Notes under the pieces: model-generated | Told to the model about the DNA's origin: nothing | Seen by the model: only the letters and a program-made list of their open reading frames with translations | Databases searched by the model: none | Translations under genes and position numbers: made by a program | Shown here: positions 532-9,445 of the stretch, one piece after another | How the letters are laid out: each line of letters begins with the position of its first letter | Numbering within the stretch: the first letter of the stretch is position 1 | Origin: Alphaproteobacteria bacterium | GTDB lineage: Bacteria; Pseudomonadota; Alphaproteobacteria; Geminicoccales; Geminicoccaceae | Assembly (NCBI GenBank): GCA_046541805.1 | Contig: JBKHCM010000001.1 | Location: forward strand, 20,612 to 84,611 | DNA length: 64,000 nt | Direction of reading: 5' to 3'

Positions 532-652
532 GATGCCTTGCCCCGCTCGTCCGCTGTTGGGTTTGGAGGACCGTTGCGGCGGTCCACGCCCGAGGGGTAA
601 CCGCGCGCGCCGCGCGCACGAAGAAAAACCGGGTTGGCGTGTCAGGCTTGTG

Positions 653-686
653 GTTTACCCCGCCACATGATGTAAACTTGTCAAAA
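653..686. promoter_or_regulatory. candidate operator in the divergent aminotransferase/regulator intergenic region
   Basis: Locally AT-rich. Inverted repeat GTTTAC (653-658)-N13-GTAAAC (672-677) overlaps AAACTTGTCAAAA (674-686). That sequence resembles the AACTTTGCAAA-type boxes I recall for RamB/PrpR-class regulators (recalled consensus, not scored). Confidence 0.3.
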
Positions 687-692
687 GCCGTG

Positions 693-2114
693 ATGACAGG
701 GGGTAGCTTGCGCGTCCGCAAAACCTTCGTGGGCCCGAGGCTGCGCCAGCTCCGCAAGGAGCGCGGCCAGAGCCAGGTGGACATGGCCCGCGCCCTCGGG
801 GTCAGCGCCTCCTACGTCAATCTGCTGGAGAACAATCAGCGCTCGCTGTCGCTGCCGGTGCTCCTGCGCGTCGCCGAGGTCTACGGCGTCGACTGGCGCG
901 ATCTGTTGCAGGACGACGCGCCGACGACCCTCGCCGACCTCAAGAACGCGCTCGAGGACCCCGTCTTCGGCGACGACAAGCCCGACCTGCAGGAGCTCCG
1001 TGCCGCCCTCGACCACAGCCCGCGGCTGGCGCGCACGCTGTTGAACCTGCACCGGGCCTACCGCGCCTTGAGCGAGGAGCTGCTGTTGGCCACCGAGGGC
1101 GGCGAGGCGCCCTCCTATCAGAGCGTCGAGACGGTCGTGCACGACCTCTTCCGGCGCCACCGCAACCACTTCGACGCGCTCGAGCGCGCCGCCGAGCGCT
1201 TTCGCGCCGGCGAGGACATCGCCCCCGACGAGGTCTACGCCCATCTCAAGCGCCGCCTCGCCGAGCGCTTCGGCATCGAGGTCATCCCGACGCCGACCCG
1301 CGAGCTCCCCCATACGCTTCGCGCCTACGACGAGACGACGGGGCGCATCCGGCTCTCGGACGCGATGGATTACCCCAACAAGGTCTTCCAGCTCACCCAC
1401 GTCGCCGGACTCCTGGAGTACCGCGAGGTCATCGACCGCATCATCACCGGCGGCGGGCTCGCGGGCCCGCGCGAGCAGGCGCGCTGCCGGGTCGAGCTCG
1501 CCAACTACCTCGCCGCCGCGGTGCTGATGCCCTACGAGCTCTTCCTCGCGGAGGCCGAGGCCAGCGCCTACGACATCGACCACCTGGCCGCCCGCTTCGG
1601 CGTCTCCTTCGAGCAGGCCTGCCACCGGCTGACCACGCTGCAGCGCGACGGGGCGCAGGGCGTGCCGCTCTTCTTCGTGCGCATCGACCGCGCCGGCAAC
1701 GTCACCAAGCGCTTCAACGCCACCAGCTTCAACCTCGCCCAGTACGGCGGGGCGTGCCCGCGCTGGGACATCCACCAGAGCTTCGCGATGCCGGGCCGCA
1801 TCCTGCCGCAGTTCGTCGAGCTCCCCGACGGCTCGCAGTACTTCACGATCAGCCGCACCGTCGACCGCCCGGCGCTGGACCGCCACAGCCACGACCATCG
1901 CCTCGCCGTCACCCTCGGCTGCGCCATCGAGCACGCGCCCAAGCTGATCTACGCCCAGGGCTACCAGCTGGGCGATCCGGGCCTCGCCACACCGATCGGC
2001 ATCAACTGTCGGCTGTGCCCGCGCCAGCACTGCCCCCAGCGCGCCCAACAGCCGCTGCATCTGGACCTGCCGATCGACGAGCGGCGGCGAGGGCATACCC
2101 GGTTCGAGAGTTGA
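693..2114 (+). CDS. XRE-family HTH regulator fused to an ImmA/IrrE-type peptidase-like domain and a Cys-rich C-terminal (DUF2083-like) domain; ScfR/RamB/PrpR class
   Basis: ORF 639..2114. N-terminal FVGPRLRQLRKERGQSQVDMARALGVSASYVNLLENNQRSLS is a Cro/C1-type HTH. C-terminal GACPRWDIHQ...CRLCPRQHCPQRA is a cysteine cluster. ATG 693 is preferred over GTG 639 because 639-692 is AT-rich, promoter-like DNA. Confidence 0.8.
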   Translation: MTGGSLRVRKTFVGPRLRQLRKERGQSQVDMARALGVSASYVNLLENNQRSLSLPVLLRVAEVYGVDWRDLLQDDAPTTLADLKNALEDPVFGDDKPDLQELRAALDHSPRLARTLLNLHRAYRALSEELLLATEGGEAPSYQSVETVVHDLFRRHRNHFDALERAAERFRAGEDIAPDEVYAHLKRRLAERFGIEVIPTPTRELPHTLRAYDETTGRIRLSDAMDYPNKVFQLTHVAGLLEYREVIDRIITGGGLAGPREQARCRVELANYLAAAVLMPYELFLAEAEASAYDIDHLAARFGVSFEQACHRLTTLQRDGAQGVPLFFVRIDRAGNVTKRFNATSFNLAQYGGACPRWDIHQSFAMPGRILPQFVELPDGSQYFTISRTVDRPALDRHSHDHRLAVTLGCAIEHAPKLIYAQGYQLGDPGLATPIGINCRLCPRQHCPQRAQQPLHLDLPIDERRRGHTRFES

Positions 2115-2356
2115 GCCGAGGCGCTGGGGCGGTGCGGCCCGCGCTACACCGCGCCCCACCGCTGATCCCCGAGGCATCGGCGCAACCCGCTACGGTCCAC
2201 GCGGGGTTTCTCACGCCCGGCCAGTGGCTCGCCGGGCCCGCCGCCCGGGCACCGACGCCGCGATGAACGCTCGCGAACCGCGTCGTTCATTCCATGGTAA
2301 TTTTTTCGGTGGGGCCGCGACAAATAGACCTCACCGACATATCGACTATTTCCGAG

Positions 2357-2371
2357 CGAATACTGTATTCG
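2357..2371. promoter_or_regulatory. perfect 15-bp palindrome CGAATAC-T-GTATTCG, candidate operator upstream of the 2527 gene
   Basis: Read directly. It lies in the only AT-richer patch (about 2290-2380) of the 412-bp gap between the regulator and the next gene, about 155 nt upstream of ATG 2527. It is followed by a direct repeat GTACGCG...GTACGCG (2371-2390). Confidence 0.4.
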
Positions 2372-2526
2372 TACGCGACGGGTACGCGTGGGTCGACGGC
2401 CGCCACGGTGGGGTCGGCGCCAGCGGGCGTGCCCGCGGCGGCCACGCTGGAGCCAACGGTCGAACCGCGGCCGATCGGCGGGTCTCGCATCGCCGCGCCC
2501 CGGCCGCCCCTGGGGAAGCTGACGCC

Positions 2527-4428
2527 ATGGTCATGGTGAAGAATCGCTACGCGTCCTTCGCGCTGCCGGCGGAGGTCGAGGAGATTTTCGCTGCCGCCCC
2601 CAAAGTGACGATGGCCGGCACCCTTGCCGAGCTCGTCGCGCTCTCGACCCGCGACGCCGAGGGCGGCTGGCACGACGTGGCCTACGACGTGCCCGGCCAC
2701 GGCCGCGTCGTCGAGGCCGTCGTCTGCCGTGCGAAGAACGGCGTCGTCGCCAACTACACCGAGGCCTACATGCGCCGGCGCGATCCGGACTGCATGGTCA
2801 TCGGCGACGAGCGCCCGACCGACAAGCCCACCTTCGAGCAGCGCTTCGAGCAGCCCTTCGCGCCGGTCCGCCGCCGCGCCTTCGAGTGGCTGAAGACCCA
2901 GCCGCTCGCGGCGTACCCGTTCTACGCCGGCCTGCCCGGCAAGGGCACGCCCGCGATGGTGGTGGCCCCCGACAACGCCGGCTTCTTCGCCCTCGGCCTC
3001 GCGCTGTTGCAGGGCATCATCCCGCCGGAGAAGGTCCCCGAGGACTTCGAGCCGCAGGCCGTCATCTACGTCGTCCCGCCCTTTCGCCACACCGACTTCG
3101 ACGGCAAGCAGGTCGTCGTGCACAACCGGACCGAGGCCGGCCACGAGCTCTTCAGCTTCAACCTCTACCCCGGGCCCAGCGCGAAGAAGGGCGTCTACGG
3201 GGTGCTGTTGAACCTGGGCGAGCACGAGCATTGGCTGACGATGCACTGCTCGACCGTCCGGCTCGTCACCCCTTACGGCAACAAGCTCGTGATCTCCCAC
3301 GAGGGTGCGAGCGGCGGCGGCAAGAGCGAGATGCTGGAGCACGTCCACCGCCGGCCCGACGGTGCGCTCCTGATCGGCCGGAACCTGGAGACCGAGGACG
3401 AGCAGACGCTCGCGCTGCCGCAGGCCTGCGAGTTGCAGCCCGTCACCGACGACATGGCGCTCTGCCACCCGTCGCTCGATAAGGGCAACGGCCGGCTGAC
3501 GCTGATGGACGCGGAGGACGCCTGGTTCGTGCGCTGCAACCACCTCGACCACTACGGCACGGACCCGCATCTCGAGGAGCTCTGCATCAACCCGCCCGAG
3601 CCGCTCTTGTTCTTGAACGTCGAGGGTCATCCCGGGGCGACCTGCCTCATCTGGGAGCACACCGAGGATGAGCCCGGCGTGCCGTGCCCCAACCCGCGCG
3701 TCATCATCCCCCGGCGGATCATCCCGCGCGTGGTCGAAGGTGCCGTCGACGTCGACGTCCGCAGCATGGGCGTGCGCACCCCGCCCTGCTCGCGCGACCT
3801 GCCCACCTTCGGCATCATCGGGCTGTTCCACGTCCTGCCGGCGGCGCTCGCCTGGCTCTGGCGGCTGGTGGCGCCGCGCGGCCACGCCAATCCGAGCATC
3901 GTGCAGACCGAGGGCATGACGTCGGAGGGCGTGGGCTCCTATTGGCCCTTCGCCACCGGCCGGCGGGTCGACCAAGCCAACCTGCTGTTGAACCAGATCG
4001 TCGAGACGCCGCGGGTCCGCTACATCCTGGTCCCGAACCAGCACATCGGCAGCTGGCGCGTCGGCTTCATGCCGCAGTGGATCACGCGCGAGTATCTCGC
4101 CCGGCGCGGCGGCGCGCGCTTCGAGCCCGACCAGCTCCGCCCCGCCCGCTGCCCGCTGTTGGGCTTTACGCCCGGCAACATCGTCGTCGAGGGGCGCACC
4201 ATCGGCACCCAGTTCTTCGAGGTCGACCGCCAGCCCGAGGTCGGCCCCGAGGCCTACGACCAGGGGGCCGCGCTGCTCGCCGCGTTCTTCCAGCGCGAGC
4301 TCGCGCAGTTCCTCGTGCCGGACCTGCTGCCGCTGGGCCGGCGCATCATCGAGTGCTGCCTCGAGGGCGGGACGACCGCGGACTACATGGCGGTGCTGGA
4401 CGTCCCCGTCTTCGAGGTCGACGAGTAG
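2527..4428 (+). CDS. large uncharacterised P-loop protein with a PEP-carboxykinase/HPr-kinase-like motif set (probably DUF4914 family)
   Basis: ORF 2224..4428. Start moved to ATG 2527 (MVMVKNRYASF...), which is preceded by GGGGAAG; the upstream part of the ORF is low-complexity. Motifs in order: HEGASGGGKSEMLEH (Walker A), VTDDMALCH, FVRCNHL, LFLNVEG, CPNPRVIIPRRIIP. High GC3 throughout. Confidence 0.75.
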   Translation: MVMVKNRYASFALPAEVEEIFAAAPKVTMAGTLAELVALSTRDAEGGWHDVAYDVPGHGRVVEAVVCRAKNGVVANYTEAYMRRRDPDCMVIGDERPTDKPTFEQRFEQPFAPVRRRAFEWLKTQPLAAYPFYAGLPGKGTPAMVVAPDNAGFFALGLALLQGIIPPEKVPEDFEPQAVIYVVPPFRHTDFDGKQVVVHNRTEAGHELFSFNLYPGPSAKKGVYGVLLNLGEHEHWLTMHCSTVRLVTPYGNKLVISHEGASGGGKSEMLEHVHRRPDGALLIGRNLETEDEQTLALPQACELQPVTDDMALCHPSLDKGNGRLTLMDAEDAWFVRCNHLDHYGTDPHLEELCINPPEPLLFLNVEGHPGATCLIWEHTEDEPGVPCPNPRVIIPRRIIPRVVEGAVDVDVRSMGVRTPPCSRDLPTFGIIGLFHVLPAALAWLWRLVAPRGHANPSIVQTEGMTSEGVGSYWPFATGRRVDQANLLLNQIVETPRVRYILVPNQHIGSWRVGFMPQWITREYLARRGGARFEPDQLRPARCPLLGFTPGNIVVEGRTIGTQFFEVDRQPEVGPEAYDQGAALLAAFFQRELAQFLVPDLLPLGRRIIECCLEGGTTADYMAVLDVPVFEVDE

Positions 4429-4433
4429 CGCGG

Positions 4434-5306
4434 GTGGAGCAGTTCGACACCGCCTTCGGCAAGCTGCGCCGGCCCGCCTTCGACCAGGTGCCCGCGGCGC
4501 ACCGCCACCGGCTCATGGGCGTGGACTACGCCCGCATCGCCGGCAAGCAGGGGGGCGAGCTCTACGTCACGCGCCACGGCTGGGCCTGCCTCGATTCCGT
4601 CCTGCCCAGGGCGTGGTTCGTCGACGACCGCTTCAAGAAGGTGGGTCGAGCGCTCGCCGGCGCCACCGGCGCCGTCTACCGCGTGCCGGTCGACCACCAC
4701 GCGCGCGAGGACTTCGCACTGGTGGTGAAGTTCAGCCGCGCCGCGCAGGACATCCGGGTCACCATCCTCGACCAAAGCGCGCATCTGGACGCGCTCGAGC
4801 ACGAGCGCATCGAGGCGGCGGCATTCCTCTCGCCGTTCGAAGAGTTCGCCAACCTCGTCAAGCTGCGCATGGCGGCGGGCTCGGCCGTGCGCACCGAACT
4901 TCCGCTCGCGATCTACTCACCGCCGACGCGCTATGCCGACTGGCAGCTCGGGCGCCATTCCCACCTCTGCAGCCGCATGAACCGCGCCCTCGCCGCCGCG
5001 CAGGCGGACGTGCCCGAACAGCACCGCGTCACCTACGATTGGGAACGGCTCTACATCCTGCTCTATCGCTGGATCGACGGCGTCGACGCCGAGGTCGCGG
5101 CGCAGACCGGGCTGATCACCAAGGAGACCATGGTGGCGCTCGGCCAGGAGGCGCGGGCGCGGCTGCGCGCGCTCGGCTGGATGGTCTGCGACCACAAGCC
5201 CCGCCACGTCATCGTCCGCCCATCGCGGCGCGGGCACGGCCCCGTGCGTCGCGGCGACCGCATCCCCTGGGCGCTGATCGACTACGAGTTGCTCGTGCCG
5301 GTCTGA
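4434..5306 (+). CDS. atypical protein-kinase-like fold protein (Kdo/WaaP/RIO-like), function unknown
   Basis: Tail of ORF 3684..5306. GTG 4434 lies 5 nt after the upstream stop; alternative start ATG 4515. Kinase-like signatures: FALVVKFSR (beta3 Lys), ILLYRWIDG, MVCDHKPRHVIV (DxKPxN-type catalytic loop with His), WALIDYELL (DFG-equivalent). Confidence 0.7.
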   Translation: MEQFDTAFGKLRRPAFDQVPAAHRHRLMGVDYARIAGKQGGELYVTRHGWACLDSVLPRAWFVDDRFKKVGRALAGATGAVYRVPVDHHAREDFALVVKFSRAAQDIRVTILDQSAHLDALEHERIEAAAFLSPFEEFANLVKLRMAAGSAVRTELPLAIYSPPTRYADWQLGRHSHLCSRMNRALAAAQADVPEQHRVTYDWERLYILLYRWIDGVDAEVAAQTGLITKETMVALGQEARARLRALGWMVCDHKPRHVIVRPSRRGHGPVRRGDRIPWALIDYELLVPV

Positions 5307-5330
5307 CGACCATCCGTCGCGCCGGTCGGT

Positions 5331-5350
5331 GAGGACCGGCGGCGGTCCTC
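5331..5350 (+). terminator. GC-rich hairpin 25 nt after the kinase-like gene (possible terminator, no clean U-tract)
   Basis: GAGGACCG-GCGG-CGGTCCTC, an 8-bp perfect stem. The T-rich GGTTTCGTTTCC follows only about 15 nt later. Confidence 0.35.
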
Positions 5351-5401
5351 GTCGGTGCCGTGATCCGGTTTCGTTTCCCCCTTGAGGGCACGCTCCTCTA
5401 A

Positions 5402-6040
5402 TCTTTCGAGGTCGGCGTCGGGCTCGCCGGCGACAACCTGAAAAAGGCCACCGTCTTCACGTTGCCGGGGTGTGGCGGCAAGTCCTTCGCCATCAGCGCC
5501 GCCGTGCTCCAAGGCGTCACGCTGCCGATCACGCCCCTGCAAATCCGCCGGGACGACGTGGTGAGCTCGGTCGGCCGCACCCTCGCCTTCGCGCCGGCGG
5601 AGAAGGCCATCATCCCGCGGCGACGCCGGCGTCGTCGGCGTCTTCGCCTGGACGCGCGCACGGCGCGCCGCGCGAAGACGGGCGGCCCTAGGCGGTGGAC
5701 ACGCTGGTCATCATGGAGATCGTCTACCGATTCAGCGTCCGCGATTTGGGTGCGCTGTCGCTGGCGCTCGCCGACCTCACGGGCATCCGGCGCGCGCCGG
5801 ATGCCGTCGGCACCGTCGCGGCCGTGCCGCTCGTCTTCACCTATGCGCCGTTCATGGAGTTTCCGTTCGACATGCGCCCCGTCGATCTCGTGCACGGCCT
5901 GGAGATTGTCGCCGTGAGCGTGGCGCTCGTCGTCGTGGTGGCGGCCGTGAAGTCCCGGCGCCGCGCCTTCGAAGACGAGCGTGCCGCCAGCGTGCGGCGG
6001 GCGACGTCGGTTCGCACCCCACGACCAAGGGAGGCGGGTC
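5402..6040 (+). pseudogene. coding-like DNA with a broken reading frame (possible decayed gene or sequencing errors)
   Basis: Plus-strand codon usage is typical of coding DNA (GTC, GGC, CTC, GCC, GAC, AAG...) in frame 2 from 5402 to about 5615 (EVGVGLAGDNLKKATVFTLPGCGGKSFAISAAVLQGVTLPITPLQIRRDDVVSSVGRTLAFAPAEKAIIP). That stretch has no ATG/GTG start, only TTG 5462. The signal moves to frame 0 at about 5616-5660, then to frame 1 from GTG 5695 (VDTLVIMEIVYRFSVRDLGALSLALADL...VAVSVALVVVVAAVKSRRR). Frame 1 has no stop until 6417. Confidence 0.3.
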
Positions 6041-6878
6041 ATGAGGAGCTTGCTGGTCGCCACGGATCTGTCGGCGCGCTCCGAGTGGGCGCTGGCACCG
6101 GCGATGGCGCTGGCGCGGGAGCGGGACGCGAAGCTGGTCGTCGTCCACGTCGTCGACGACGACCTCCCACCGGCGCTCGCCGACGCCCAGGCGGACGAGG
6201 CGGGGCGCCTGTTGCGGGCCCGCTGCGACGCCCTCGCCGAGGGCGGCCGCCCGGAGGTCACCGTCGGGCCGGGCGCACGCCGATATCCAGGTGGCGGCCA
6301 CGCGGCACGGCGCCGCGTGGGTGGTCCTCGGCACCCATCGCCACGACCCCTGGCGCGACATGTTCCGCGGCACGACGGCGGAGCGCGTCGTGCGCACCTG
6401 CGCGGTGCCCGTGCTGATCGTCCGCGACCCGGTGAAGGGTCCCTACGAGCGGGTGCTCGCGGCCGTCGACTTCTCCGTCTTCGCCCGCCGCGCCGTCGAG
6501 TTCACGCTCGGCTTTTTGCCGAACGCCGAGGTCGAGCTGATCCACGCCTTCAACGTGCCCTTCGGCGGGTTCCTCAAGGGCGAGGACACGCGCGACCAGA
6601 TGGTGGCGGAGATCGACGCGCGCGTTCGCAAGCTCCTCGACGAGGAGATGGCGACCTTCCTCGCCCAACTCGACGACGCCGCCGGGCAGCTGCGCGGCGT
6701 CATGCTCGAAGGCGGCGTCCGCGAGGTCCTCATCGCCAGGGTCCAGCAGACGGCGCTCGACCTGCTCGTCATCGGCACGCACGGCAGATCGGGGCTCGCG
6801 CACGCGGTCCTGGGCAGCGTCGCCGAGGACCTCCTGCGCAGCCCGCCCTGCGACGTCCTCACCGTCGGCGCCCGATGA
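6041..6878 (+). pseudogene. tandem-domain universal stress protein (UspA family) interrupted by an apparent 1-nt frameshift near 6266-6273
   Basis: ATG 6041 is preceded by AAGGGAGG and gives MRSLLVATDLSARSEWALAPAMALARERDAKLVVVHVVDDDLPP...EVTVGPG. The USP sequence then continues in another frame (ORF 6291..6878: ADIQVAATRHGAAWVVLGTHRHDPWRDMFRGTTAERVVRTCAVPVLIV...LLVIGTHGRSGLAHAVLGSVAEDLLRSPPCDVLTV). The junction lies in the G/C run GTCGGGCCGGGCGC. Confidence 0.7.
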
Positions 6879-6881
6879 CGG

Positions 6882-7754
6882 TCAGCGGGCTTCGTCGCCA
6901 AAGGGGGCGCCGTCGATAAGGGTCGGCGGGACGATCAAGAGGTCGCGGTCGCTCTCGCGGAGCAGCCGCGAGGTGACGCTGCCGAGGACCAGACGGCCGA
7001 GGCCGCGCCGAGCGTGGGTCGCGGTCACGACGAGGTCGACGTCGAGGCGGGCCGCGGCCTCTTCCAGGGCCGCCACCGGCTCGCCGGCGACGACGATGAC
7101 GTCGGCCACGTCGGGCTGGCCAGCGGAGACGCTGGCCAGGTGACGACGCAACGCCGCCGCGGTCTCCGCCTCGTGCGCCTTGATCCCCGCCTCGGGCACA
7201 CCCGCGGAGGCCATCTTTGCCGAGGCGAACGGATCGAAGGCGTGCAAGAGGCTCACATGGGTGGGCGCGGCCGCGCCGAAGCGGTGCAGGAGCGCGAGGA
7301 TCGCCGGCCCGGGCTCGGCCTCCACCCCGACGAGCGCGTGCACGTAGGGCGTCGCGGCGGGGCCGCGGGCGATCAGCACCGGCACGCTCGCGACGCGGAC
7401 GAGGCGCTCGACGGTCGTGTCGAGGAACAGCGCGCGCAAGAGCGAGCGCCGATGGTCGCCGACGACGAGCAGGTCGGCCGCGACGTCGACGGCGGCGCGA
7501 GCGATCGCGACGAAAGGGTCGCCGGTAACCACGCGCATTTCCTGCGCGAGGTCGGCGAGACCGCCGGCCTCGCGCGATAGCTCGCGTTCCGCGATGGCGG
7601 TCCGCTCGGCGACCACGTCGGCGGGCGCGTCCTCGTCGACGACGTGCACGAGCGCGAGCCGGGCCTCGGCCAGGCGGGCGAGGCTGGCGGCGCGGGCGAG
7701 CGCCGCCTCCGAGCGCTTGGAGAAGTCGCTCGCGGCCAGGATGCAGCGGATCAT
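6882..7754 (-). CDS. tandem-domain universal stress protein (UspA family)
   Basis: ORF 6882..8060 trimmed to ATG 7754 ([28 protein letters not shown]...VVTATHARRGLGRLVLGSVTSRLLRESDRDLLIV). The start overlaps the stop of the upstream Kef-type gene in an ATGA. Confidence 0.85.
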   Translation of the reverse strand: MIRCILAASDFSKRSEAALARAASLARLAEARLALVHVVDEDAPADVVAERTAIAERELSREAGGLADLAQEMRVVTGDPFVAIARAAVDVAADLLVVGDHRRSLLRALFLDTTVERLVRVASVPVLIARGPAATPYVHALVGVEAEPGPAILALLHRFGAAAPTHVSLLHAFDPFASAKMASAGVPEAGIKAHEAETAAALRRHLASVSAGQPDVADVIVVAGEPVAALEEAAARLDVDLVVTATHARRGLGRLVLGSVTSRLLRESDRDLLIVPPTLIDGAPFGDEAR

Positions 7755-9445
7755 GCCCGCGCCTCGTGCTTGGCGTCGTCCTTGAGCTCGGCGCCGCGGG
7801 TGTCGTCGAGCTCGACCATGCGTCGCGCGGCCGTCGTCGCCGCGTCGTCGAAGGGGTAAAGCACCAGATCCACGCCCGCCTCCGCCAGCCGCCGGCCCTG
7901 ATCCGGCTCGCGGGCGATGAGTGCGGTGCGGCCGTGATAGCCGTGCGCGCGGATCGCCGCGAGGAGGCCGTGACCCGGGTCGGTGTGGTTCAGCCGCAAC
8001 GTGCCGAAGGGCACGGCCAGGACGAGCCAGCGGGTCGTGCCCAGCGGCAGCTGGTCCCAAAAGGCGTGCTCGTTGACGTCGCCGTAGCGGACCCGATGGC
8101 CGCTCAGGCGCGCCTCGCGGACGACCGTGGGGTCGAGGTCGACGCCGAGCACGGTGTAGCCCGCGTCCTCGAGCTGCTCGTAGAGCCGGATCCCGACGCG
8201 TCCGAGCCCGAACAGGATGACGTCGACCGGGGCCGTGTCGTCGTCCTCGCCGGCGCGCTCGCGCTTAAGGCTGAAGTCGAAGATGGCGAGCGCCGGCTTT
8301 GCCCACGCGTAGAGCTCGTGCGAGTAGGTGATCATGTAGACCGATGCGGCGATGGTCACCAGGCCCACCAGGGTGACGAGGCCCACCGCCGCCTCGTCGA
8401 CATGCCCGAGCGCCAGCCCCATCGCCATGAAGATCAACGAGAACTCCGAGATCTGCGCCACCGTGAGCCCGCACAGAAAGCCGGTGCGCACCCGGTAGCC
8501 CATGGCACCCATGATCACGACGACGATGAGCGGGTTGCCGATCAGCACGAACAGCGAGAAGACCACCGCGCGGCCGGTGTCCGCTCCGAGCGTGTCGAGA
8601 TCGAGCGTCGTGCCGATGTAGAGGAAGAAGAAGAGCAGCAGGAAGTCCCTGAGGGCCGACAGCCGCGCCGAGATCATGTCGCGATAGGTGGTCGAGCCGA
8701 GCGAGACGCCGGCGGCGAGGCCGCCCAGCTCCTTGCCGATGCCGACGAGGTCGCCCACCGCGGCGGCCGCCGCCGCCCAGCCGATGGCGAAGATGACGAG
8801 GAGCTCGGGCGTGCGGGCGAAGCGCGCGGTCAAGGGCTCCGCCAGCCAGCGCACGAAGACCAAAAGCCCGGCGACGAGGCCGACCAGCCCGGCGATGACG
8901 GCGAGCAGGTCGCCGCCCTTGCCACCGGTGCCGACGCCGAGGGTCGAGAGCCCGACCATCGCGACCACGACCACGATGTCCTGAACGATCAAAAAGCCGA
9001 GGGCGATCCGACCGTGCAGCGTCTCGAGCTCGCGCTTGTCGCTCAACAGCTTCACGATGATGATCGTCGAGGAGAAGGTCAGCGCCACGGCGACGTAGAA
9101 GCTCGTGACCATGTCCAGGCCGAGGGCGAGGCCCAAGACGAATCCGATGCCGGCGGTGAAGGCGACTTGGCCGAGGCCCGTGGCCACCGCCACCGGACCG
9201 AGTTGGCGCACCAGGCGCCAATCCAGCGTCAAGCCCACGAGAAAGAGCAGCAGCGCGACGCCGAGCTCGGCGAGGAAGGTGATCTGCGCCACCGTCGCCG
9301 GCGCGGCCTCCAAGAACGCCGCCGCCGCGATGCCGACGACGATGAAGCTCACGACCACGGGCTGGCGCAGCGCCGTGCCGAGGAGACCGACGGCGGCCGC
9401 GATCAGCAGCAAGAAGGCGATCTCGTGAAAAACGTAGTCGTGCAT
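7751..9445 (-). CDS. Kef-type cation/proton antiporter (CPA2) with C-terminal RCK/TrkA-N domain
   Basis: 564-aa ORF with about 12 hydrophobic segments (MHDYVFHEIAFLLLIAAAVGLLG...), followed by VILFGLGRVGIRLYEQLEDAGYTVLGVDLDP (Rossmann GxGxxG). Confidence 0.85.
   Translation of the reverse strand: MHDYVFHEIAFLLLIAAAVGLLGTALRQPVVVSFIVVGIAAAAFLEAAPATVAQITFLAELGVALLLFLVGLTLDWRLVRQLGPVAVATGLGQVAFTAGIGFVLGLALGLDMVTSFYVAVALTFSSTIIIVKLLSDKRELETLHGRIALGFLIVQDIVVVVAMVGLSTLGVGTGGKGGDLLAVIAGLVGLVAGLLVFVRWLAEPLTARFARTPELLVIFAIGWAAAAAAVGDLVGIGKELGGLAAGVSLGSTTYRDMISARLSALRDFLLLFFFLYIGTTLDLDTLGADTGRAVVFSLFVLIGNPLIVVVIMGAMGYRVRTGFLCGLTVAQISEFSLIFMAMGLALGHVDEAAVGLVTLVGLVTIAASVYMITYSHELYAWAKPALAIFDFSLKRERAGEDDDTAPVDVILFGLGRVGIRLYEQLEDAGYTVLGVDLDPTVVREARLSGHRVRYGDVNEHAFWDQLPLGTTRWLVLAVPFGTLRLNHTDPGHGLLAAIRAHGYHGRTALIAREPDQGRRLAEAGVDLVLYPFDDAATTAARRMVELDDTRGAELKDDAKHEARA

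Follow-up and report, generated by a model that had tools for sequence, protein, structure and literature searches.

Introduction

The phosphoenolpyruvate (PEP)-pyruvate-oxaloacetate node controls the flow of carbon through glycolysis, gluconeogenesis and the tricarboxylic acid (TCA) cycle, and its enzymes are considered to be well catalogued: PEP carboxylase (PEPC), three classes of PEP carboxykinase (PEPCK), pyruvate carboxylase (PYC), pyruvate phosphate dikinase and PEP synthase (PPDK/PEPS), and the malic enzymes. PEPCK belongs to the same P-loop superfamily as HPr kinase/phosphorylase (HprK/P), an enzyme that can use pyrophosphate (PPi). Here we describe a two-gene operon located at positions 2527 to 5306 of a 64,000-nucleotide stretch of DNA (hereafter the window) from an alphaproteobacterium of the Geminicoccaceae (assembly GCA_046541805.1, contig JBKHCM010000001.1, positions 20,612 to 84,611). 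Gene 1 encodes a protein of the DUF4914 family that very probably has the fold and active site of a PEPCK, and gene 2 a protein with a predicted kinase-like fold, referred to below as the partner. The explanation that we favor overall, with a probability of about 45%, is that the DUF4914 protein of this operon acts in a PEPCK-like manner on PEP and oxaloacetate and that the partner is its regulator.

Like the PEPCKs (E. coli PckA and the vertebrate and mycobacterial enzymes), DUF4914 has a two-domain architecture with near-full-length colinearity, the same fold by Foldseek, and conserved YxGxxKKG, MHCS, GxSGxGK[ST], DD and NxRV motifs; its DDMA spelling resembles the GTP-type PEPCK motif VGDDIAW. 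The pair as a whole recalls AceK with isocitrate dehydrogenase, and PEPC kinase with PEPC and PEPCK, in each of which a kinase-fold protein is tied to one branch-point enzyme; the likeness would be a functional analogy only. PEPC kinase is little more than a bare kinase domain. To our knowledge, a dedicated kinase-fold partner of the kind found here in one DUF4914 clade has not been described for any bacterial PEPCK. In plants, PEPCK is phosphoregulated, and PEPC kinase phosphorylates plant PEPCK in vitro (PMC10441589).

A predicted PEPCK-like active site in the DUF4914 protein

Gene 1 (2527-4428, plus strand; start codon ATG at 2527, stop codon TAG at 4428) encodes 633 residues, of which 13-623 match positions 1-611 of the 612-position DUF4914 profile (PF16260) with 1021.7 bits, against a cut-off of 25.7. 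A first-pass annotation, made from the letters of the window, had called the protein "probably DUF4914", and this full-length match confirms it. In order along the protein are found GASGGGKSE (260-268), VTDDMA (306-311), FVRCNHL (334-340), LFLNVEG (361-367) and CPNPRVIIPRRIIP (387-400). A diverse DUF4914 alignment, with members down to 27% identity taken from a search of cluster representatives, was compared with E. coli K-12 PckA by hhalign. The match had a probability of 94.6% and an E-value of 7e-8 over 240 columns, and under relaxed settings DUF4914 residues 26-617 were colinear with PckA 2-540. As judged from these profiles, the motif parallel with PckA, first noticed in the letters, exceeds chance.

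In the profile alignment, Y214 of DUF4914 corresponds to Y207 of PckA, K220/K221 to K212/K213, H240 to H232 (within MHCS in both), S262...K266-S267 to S250...K254-T255, D308/D309 to D268/D269, and N389-R391 to N331-R333. All of these except H240, found in at least 90% of the sequences, are invariant in DUF4914 members down to 27% identity. Structural work on PckA has established the residues so aligned as contacts of the Mn2+ in the active site, of the Mg-nucleotide, of the phosphate that is transferred and of the substrate. The P-loop GASGGGKSE aligns with GLSGTGKTT of PckA, with S262, G263 and K266 family-invariant; the predicted metal ligands K221, H240 and D309 align with K213, H232 and D269; and R391, in NPRV, is the aligned and invariant counterpart of PckA R333.

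The same relationship was obtained at the level of predicted structure. A Foldseek search with an AlphaFold model of DUF4914 gave 112 PDB hits at E<=1e-3, and the 50 that were listed were all PEPCKs, of both the ATP and the GTP types; the best match had an E-value of 6.7e-12 and a probability of 1.0, with TM-scores (template-modeling scores) of ~0.28 and ~13% identity in the fold alignments. We therefore regard it as very likely that the product of gene 1 is an enzyme of the PEPCK fold whose active site resembles that of PEPCK. DUF4914 would then be a divergent member of the PEPCK superfamily that keeps the PEPCK catalytic machinery, namely the P-loop for the transferred phosphate, the Lys/His/Asp metal ligands and the NxR arginine that would hold the substrate.

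Several observations count against so close a relationship. Apart from its low identity to PEPCK, DUF4914 falls below the threshold of the PEPCK_ATP family (PF01293; 12.4 bits against a cut-off of 26.5, E-value 0.064, residues 70-267 only). PDB sequence searches with gene 1, by phmmer from the single sequence and by hmmsearch from a profile, missed PEPCK; those with genes 1 and 2 returned only thymidylate synthase and L14, at E-values of 0.3 or above, and nothing meaningful. The AlphaFold model is poor (predicted local distance difference test, pLDDT, 61, and below 50 in the catalytic core) because the underlying alignment, of sequences at least 70% identical, was too shallow; the residue mapping consequently depends on the profile alignment. 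The equivalent of PckA R65 falls in a gapped, low-confidence part of that alignment, where the invariant R83 and R85 are mere candidates. Finally, DUF4914 has invariant residues of its own (E63, R187 and E330), an insertion of about 25 residues (279-305) that separates the P-loop from the DD motif, and a P-loop spelled GKSE in the manner of HprK instead of GKTT or GKTN, and a different substrate or phosphoryl donor is therefore possible.

The spelling of the P-loop also bears on a quite different proposal, in which DUF4914 is an HprK/P-like kinase/phosphorylase and the partner a second protein kinase, the two forming a signaling module. The Walker A motif of HprK/P, GxSGxGKSE, is indeed spelled like GASGGGKSE, and the second gene does have a predicted kinase fold. 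Against this, no match to the Hpr_kinase Pfam family was found in gene 1 at E<=0.1, there was no HprK among the 50 fold hits listed, and what DUF4914 shares with PckA extends to the N-terminal domain and to the Mn-ligand and substrate motifs, none of which HprK has. DUF4914 is about twice the size of HprK/P (633 against ~310 residues), no PTS (phosphotransferase system) or HPr genes were found in its neighborhoods, and identities of at least 70% across phyla are typical of a metabolic enzyme. We consider a signaling module of this kind improbable. The initial description of gene 1 as "PEPCK/HPrK-like" thus stands in its PEPCK half, with full-length colinearity and Mn-ligand and substrate motifs, and is given up in its HPrK half, to which the P-loop spelling alone corresponds.

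A predicted kinase-like fold in the partner

Gene 2 (4434-5306, plus strand) begins with GTG at 4434, 5 nt past the stop codon of gene 1, and its homologues begin MEQFD at the same place. The 290-residue product carries VVKF (97-100), CDHKPRHVIV (252-261) and LIDYE (281-285); these motifs, those of gene 1 and the 5-nt spacing were all present in the sequence where the first-pass annotation had placed them. A database search with the partner returned 355 homologues, all unnamed, and the protein had neither a Pfam match above threshold nor a counterpart among the PDB sequences; a scan of NCBIfam gave no match for either gene. Neither protein, then, corresponds to a characterized enzyme in Pfam, NCBIfam, the PDB sequences or the literature searched, in keeping with the initial view of an undescribed system.

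The AlphaFold (AF2) model of the partner, built from a 36-sequence alignment, had a pLDDT of 88.9 and a predicted TM-score of 0.89. The best 50 PDB matches in Foldseek were all kinase-fold proteins, with probabilities of up to 1.0; the first was the kinase domain of WbdD (E-value 5.9e-4), and the list included CDK4, Myt1, FIKK13, YabT, PknB and, at lower rank, AceK. Kinase residues were assigned by their position in the predicted secondary structure, not by residue-level structural superposition. In this way the glycine-rich stretch GATGAVY (76-82) was placed ahead of strand 81-85, K99 within strand 95-100 (the position of the beta3 lysine), E137 within helix 134-148 (the position of the alphaC glutamate), D253-H-K-P-R-H258 after strand 249-251 (the position of the catalytic loop), and D283, in D283-Y-E, after strand 279-281 (the position of the metal-binding aspartate). 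The glycine-rich loop, K99, E137, DHKPRH and D283 are invariant in the 36 sequences, and His258 stands in place of the usual catalytic-loop Asn. The conserved core ends with DYELLVP, 7 residues past D283, and the C-terminal tails of some homologues are unconserved. At the other end is a conserved extension of 75 residues, whose first 60 are strongly conserved and have no kinase counterpart.

The kinase fold first proposed for gene 2 is borne out by the confident model, by a Foldseek top 50 made up of kinases and by the invariance of the lysine, catalytic-loop and metal-aspartate positions, and we hold a kinase-like fold to be highly probable; Foldseek thus returned matches to both of the proposed folds, PEPCK for gene 1 and kinase for gene 2. 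The partner resembles the atypical kinases (the WbdD kinase domain, the LPS-core kinases WaaP/WaaY and the minimal kinases of the RIO/Bud32 type) in its predicted bilobal fold and in the canonical order of its catalytic residues. It differs from them in belonging to no Pfam kinase family, in having His for Asn, in its early chain end and N-terminal extension, and in TM-scores of only ~0.3. On the evidence of the model, it represents a new, truncated family of kinase-fold proteins. A match to TY-Chap3 (E-value 3.7e-4, below threshold, in 10 of the 36 members) was deemed spurious, as it covers the helices of the kinase C-lobe.

The low TM-scores are one of a number of results that speak against the partner as a kinase regulator of DUF4914. 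None of the kinase Pfam families (Pkinase, Kdo/WaaP, RIO1, APH and others) was matched at E<=1 in any of the 36 members. By hhalign, the partner profile, also in an enlarged version with 3.2 effective sequences (Neff), gave no significant alignment to WaaP, WaaY or AceK of E. coli (E-values 0.06-0.7), although in the WaaY alignment (0.06) the hinge and the catalytic loop were in the expected register. Because the chain stops 7 residues past D283, the partner is devoid of the activation segment, the APE motif and helices alphaF-alphaI, elements that protein kinases use to bind protein substrates. As for AceK, no sequence relation to the partner was detectable and it appeared only among the low-ranked fold hits, and a phosphorylation of DUF4914, by analogy with that of isocitrate dehydrogenase, is putative.

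Co-inheritance of the pair and the possible role of the partner

A search with the partner, restricted to one genome per species, gave 59 loci, and in 53 of them DUF4914 was encoded directly upstream on the same strand; two of the other six were cut by contig ends, and four had other neighbors. The gap between the two genes was 3-17 nt in 25 of the 27 measurable loci, with a median of 12. The loci span Alphaproteobacteria (Geminicoccaceae and Rhodoplanes), Chromatiaceae, several orders of Verrucomicrobiota, and Planctomycetota. Within the window, no promoter-like or terminator-like sites were found between the two genes, their GC content at third codon positions (0.96 for gene 1 and 0.93 for gene 2) and codon-position pattern are typical of real genes in this genome, and they form an operon. 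The dependence runs in one direction only: the partner was within reach in just 10 of 80 metagenomic DUF4914 loci, as searched by tblastn and with a hidden Markov model. The synteny of the pair suggested in the first place therefore holds from the partner to DUF4914 and fails from DUF4914 to the partner, and DUF4914 does not need the partner.

In a neighbor-joining tree of 98 full-length DUF4914 proteins, 53 of the 58 partner-linked sequences form one clade, which covers four phyla and includes a single partner-less sequence. The five outlying loci have much more divergent partners (33-39% identity by tblastn), one of them on the opposite strand and one upstream. The pairwise identities of DUF4914 and of the partner are correlated (r = 0.87, 1431 pairs). 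This clade distribution and this correlation indicate a single recruitment followed by joint inheritance: the partner was recruited by one DUF4914 lineage, was kept with DUF4914, and moved with it between phyla. Only four residues, D408, N489, F564 and L601, distinguish the partner-linked clade.

The most divergent partner homologues (39-40% identity) are found in two Planctomycetota loci (L056, 2873-5773, and L057, 3868-6265), where they do not adjoin DUF4914. They lie directly 3' of a gene for a 442-residue SpoIIE/PP2C phosphatase, a pairing of a kinase-fold protein with a phosphatase.

In the explanation that we rank first, the partner, an atypical kinase-fold protein reduced to a minimum but with its ATP-binding and catalytic residues all in place, would have been taken up by one DUF4914 clade to phosphorylate DUF4914 and thereby serve as its dedicated regulator, in parallel with AceK acting on isocitrate dehydrogenase and with PEPC kinase acting on plant PEPC and PEPCK. 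Its grounds are that the partner is optional for DUF4914, tightly coupled to it where present and intact in its catalytic set; the phosphatase pairing of the two divergent homologues and the precedent of PEPCK phosphoregulation in plants are further ones. The kinase target is something we infer, and phosphorylation of DUF4914 by the gene 2 product is a tentative proposal, with the odds somewhat against it.

A close second is the explanation in which DUF4914 has the PEPCK fold and the partner is a small-molecule kinase of the same pathway, or a tightly bound subunit without a regulatory function; we see this as possible but rather unlikely. Two observations that weaken the dedicated regulator fit well here: the best fold match, the kinase domain of WbdD, phosphorylates a sugar, and no Ser, Thr or Tyr specific to partner-linked DUF4914, as an acceptor of the phosphate, was found. 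The early end of the chain, without activation segment and docking helices, points in the same direction, as does the strong conservation of the 60 N-terminal residues that have no kinase counterpart, and the four clade-specific residues could form an interface with a subunit. On the other hand, the absence of the partner from 70 of the 80 metagenomic DUF4914 loci suits an optional regulator better, the divergent homologues pair with a PP2C protein phosphatase, and the pair has no recurrent neighbor that would make or use a small phosphorylated compound. A dedicated regulator of DUF4914 is accordingly kept in first place.

Gene neighborhoods and the putative reaction of DUF4914

Open reading frames (ORFs) from 139 related loci were clustered and the cluster representatives scanned against Pfam; the counts given here are over ~134 DUF4914 loci, the window included. 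An adenylate kinase, single or as a tandem fusion, was found in 15 loci, with or without the partner. Carboxyltransferases of the PYC_OADA/HMGL kind (the oxaloacetate decarboxylase / pyruvate carboxylase 5S type) were present in 8 loci, pyruvate kinase in 4, and a dicarboxylate symporter, a PEP-mutase/isocitrate-lyase-family enzyme and EPSP (5-enolpyruvylshikimate-3-phosphate) synthase in 3 each. Genes related to inorganic carbon were MpsC (8 loci), the SbtA bicarbonate transporter (3 loci) and a beta-carbonic anhydrase (4 loci: 3 just downstream of DUF4914 and 1, L085, after the partner). MpsABC is a bicarbonate-supply system that is functionally exchangeable with carbonic anhydrase (PMC6689103, PMC8552792). 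PurK and PurE were seen in 3-4 loci, and transporters of the major facilitator superfamily (MFS) in 10. One metagenome contig (Ga0224486_100004; L084, 4409-10701) has a same-strand cluster of an MpsC-like gene, adenylate kinase, a second MpsC-like gene, DUF4914, PurK and PurE.

Regulatory genes recur as well. An AraC regulator with a PocR-type sensor domain is divergent from the pair in 21 loci of Verrucomicrobiota and Planctomycetota (for example L035, 5315-6196, and L048, 7046-7963), which in these groups points to a small-molecule ligand as the controlling signal; a LysR regulator was present in 10 loci, and a MarR regulator in Rhodoplanes.

These neighbors converge on PEP, pyruvate and oxaloacetate and on inorganic carbon, and both themes would suit a carboxykinase that runs toward carboxylation; to judge from the repeated presence of an extra adenylate kinase, the balance of AMP, ADP and ATP may be of importance to the reaction. 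The C2/C3 metabolite first proposed as a target is thereby narrowed to the PEP/oxaloacetate/inorganic-carbon node, the C2 (glyoxylate) part finding no place in this context. No canonical ATP-PEPCK was found in the window or in 1.87 Mb of related loci, which do not amount to whole genomes. From the conserved residues and this setting we infer the substrates, direction and nucleotide of the reaction: most likely, DUF4914 would use a metal and a nucleotide to interconvert PEP + CO2 and oxaloacetate, or would catalyze something very similar, probably as a carboxylating (anaplerotic) enzyme coupled to the pool of adenine nucleotides. Written as oxaloacetate + NTP <-> PEP + CO2 + NDP (NTP and NDP, nucleoside tri- and diphosphate), this putative catalysis agrees with the gene context; that the substrates are PEP and oxaloacetate themselves we put at even odds. 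It weakens the case that each recurring neighbor occurs in a minority of loci and that many DUF4914 genes stand alone.

The neighborhoods also bear on the view that DUF4914 uses the PEPCK scaffold otherwise, in another carboxylation or decarboxylation, on another enol-phosphate or keto-acid substrate, or with PPi, ADP, AMP or the like as an unusual phosphoryl donor. The extra adenylate kinase of 15 loci and the PurK/PurE/PurC and PEP-mutase-family genes recurring nearby would all agree with it, as would the separate Pfam family with its own invariants and insertion, the P-loop spelled as in HprK/P, and the unplaced equivalent of PckA R65. It has to contend with the conservation of all alignable PEPCK residues that contact the metal, the transferred phosphate or the substrate, and with pyruvate kinase, the carboxyltransferase of the oxaloacetate-decarboxylase type and the dicarboxylate symporter, neighbors that point to PEP and oxaloacetate. 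A different reaction of this sort is, in our estimation, a minority possibility, and a PEPCK-like reaction on PEP and oxaloacetate is preferred.

The presence of a two-gene cassette in several phyla, consistent with horizontal spread, would also be expected of a module for anti-phage defense, or of the toxin-antitoxin type, that combines a P-loop NTPase with a kinase. Neither protein had a PADLOC match and no plasmid copies were found; the neighbors are metabolic genes and metabolic regulators, not defense islands, and DUF4914 is highly conserved and usually single. Such a role was rejected as extremely improbable.

Distribution of the DUF4914 family

DUF4914 is an abundant and extremely conserved family: at least 8000 90%-identity clusters were scored in each of two database searches with it. 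In the first, the top 120 were at least 71% identical to the protein of the window, came from Rhodoplanes, Thiocapsa, Halochromatium, Lamprobacter, Verrucomicrobiota and Methylacidiphilales, and were all named only "DUF4914 family protein". The second search, with a member 56% identical, added Hydrogenedentes, Chloroflexota/Anaerolineales, Bryobacteraceae and Limisphaerales. When 1.84 billion cluster representatives were searched exhaustively, 674 relatives emerged, 165 of them at E<=1e-30, a number that makes the family a compact one; many of the 150 relatives listed were far shorter than full length. A literature search found no paper on DUF4914, and the database names are all generic.

Two members call for separate mention. 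The 831-residue cluster representative P0242 has a 215-residue Arg/Ser-rich N-terminal extension outside the DUF4914 match, which is its sole family match; the extension is probably a mis-called start and not a real fusion. In a Chloroflexota genome (GCA_016860845.1; L143, 8001-16713, also L144), a Tn7-like element with TnsA-like, Mu-transposase_C/TnsB, TniB, HTH (helix-turn-helix) and TniQ parts starts ~750 bp past the DUF4914 stop codon, and for a transposon guided by TniQ the highly conserved DUF4914 gene might be the landmark of an attachment site.

Upstream region of the operon

A regulator gene (639-2114, plus strand) lies directly upstream of the pair, as first annotated. Its Pfam matches (ScfRs, 2.9e-63; Peptidase_M78, 2.1e-21; HTH_3, 2.4e-13) agree with the ScfR/RamB class it had been given. 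Since it scores 414 bits against the NCBIfam RamB model, below the equivalog cut-off of 700, it appears by its sequence to be of the RamB class without being a RamB orthologue. In the 412-nt intergenic region, an AT-richer part (2290-2375, plus strand; GC 49.5% in a window of 71% GC) is the likely promoter/operator zone, a candidate in which no match to the sigma-70 consensus was found. Here lies the perfect palindrome CGAATAC-T-GTATTCG (2357-2371), 155 nt before the ATG of gene 1, at the distance reported earlier. As the window holds 110 perfect palindromes with 7-nt arms against ~66 expected, the palindrome alone is statistically weak; it is the only AT-rich one among them (0.35 expected), and no second copy occurs in the window when as many as 2 mismatches are allowed.

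Among other genomes the closest is L001, with a DUF4914 protein 90% identical and a partner 86% identical to those of the window. There the palindrome reads CGGATAC-C-GTATTCA, and only 5 of its 7 arm positions pair. Within 2290-2375, the block CGACATATCGACTATTTC matches L001 at 18 of 18 positions, and a 39-nt GC-rich leader block, GGTCGAACCGCGGCCGATCGGCGGGTCTCGCATCGCCGC (2463-2501, plus strand), which holds the self-complementary elements CCGCGG/CCGATCGG, shows one difference; because L001 is so close a relative, the conservation of these two blocks says little. Rfam gave no match in the leader or in the whole window.

None of the 139 related loci from other organisms has the RamB/ScfR-like regulator, and it is missing from the 1.1 kb available upstream in L001; it stands beside the pair only in assemblies of the window's own strain, where the intergenic sequence is identical. 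The core reported for RamB/PrpR is of the TTTGCAAA type, and the palindrome does not contain it. The palindrome is thus a reasonable operator candidate for which no tie to the neighboring regulator was found, and the link between the two that had been suggested is unsupported by the comparison, the regulator being absent elsewhere and the palindrome degraded in L001. Both the regulator and the palindrome are specific to this lineage, and they are putative regulatory parts.

Downstream of the operon, a weak terminator-like hairpin (5384-5398, in an element mapped to 5384-5408, plus strand), ~80 nt past the stop codon of the partner, marks a possible operon end. It is the sole terminator-like site in 2050-5700, a number no higher than the 1.1 +/- 1.1 obtained from shuffled sequences, and it lacks significance on that account.

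Other features of the window

The aminotransferase noted near the pair is present as the 5' part of a class-V (Aminotran_5) gene at 1-531 on the minus strand, divergent from the regulator; it provides context only. Its minus-strand translation begins MRTGITHLYIPGPTNVPERV, and the complete gene in the source genome encodes 398 residues with PF00266 (L148, 4902-6098). No serine-cycle or glyoxylate cluster was found upstream of the window in the source genome.

The ~1 kb past the operon (5307-6290) holds no convincing gene. Public gene callers are split between a 234-residue ORF on the plus strand and a 221-residue ORF on the minus strand; the latter and a 151-residue plus-strand ORF (5462-5914) had no Pfam match, and the gene-caller record lists none for the former. 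The region includes a run of Arg codons (CGN) that reads as poly-Arg in two reading frames. Beyond it are genes unrelated to the pair: two universal-stress-protein genes facing each other (6291-6878, plus strand, and ~6882-7754, minus strand), a Kef-type transporter with Na_H_Exchanger and TrkA_N (7751-9445, minus strand), and a phosphoglucosamine-mutase-type gene.

Implications

What is new here, as read from the sequences, is a lineage of the PEPCK superfamily that appears to have its catalytic residues intact and that is coupled, in one horizontally spread clade, to a family of kinase-fold proteins. A bolder and rather speculative reading is that DUF4914 constitutes a fourth, unrecognized class of PEP-carboxylating enzyme or carboxykinase, perhaps working with ADP/AMP or PPi, widespread in uncultured Verrucomicrobiota, Hydrogenedentes, Chloroflexota, purple bacteria and others, and switched in one clade by a minimal kinase of its own. 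The unusual phosphoryl partner is hinted at by the HprK-like P-loop together with the recurrent extra adenylate kinase. If this were so, the partner would be a new kinase-fold family and a bacterial counterpart of plant PEPC kinase.

If DUF4914 acts at the PEP-pyruvate-oxaloacetate node, the metabolic reconstructions of many environmental phyla would have a gap at this point, and the enzyme would be a candidate biocatalyst for CO2 fixation. With the partner, the kinase-like superfamily would gain a new family, and the pair, if our preferred explanation is true, would be a rare bacterial case, besides AceK, of an enzyme of central metabolism with its own linked kinase.

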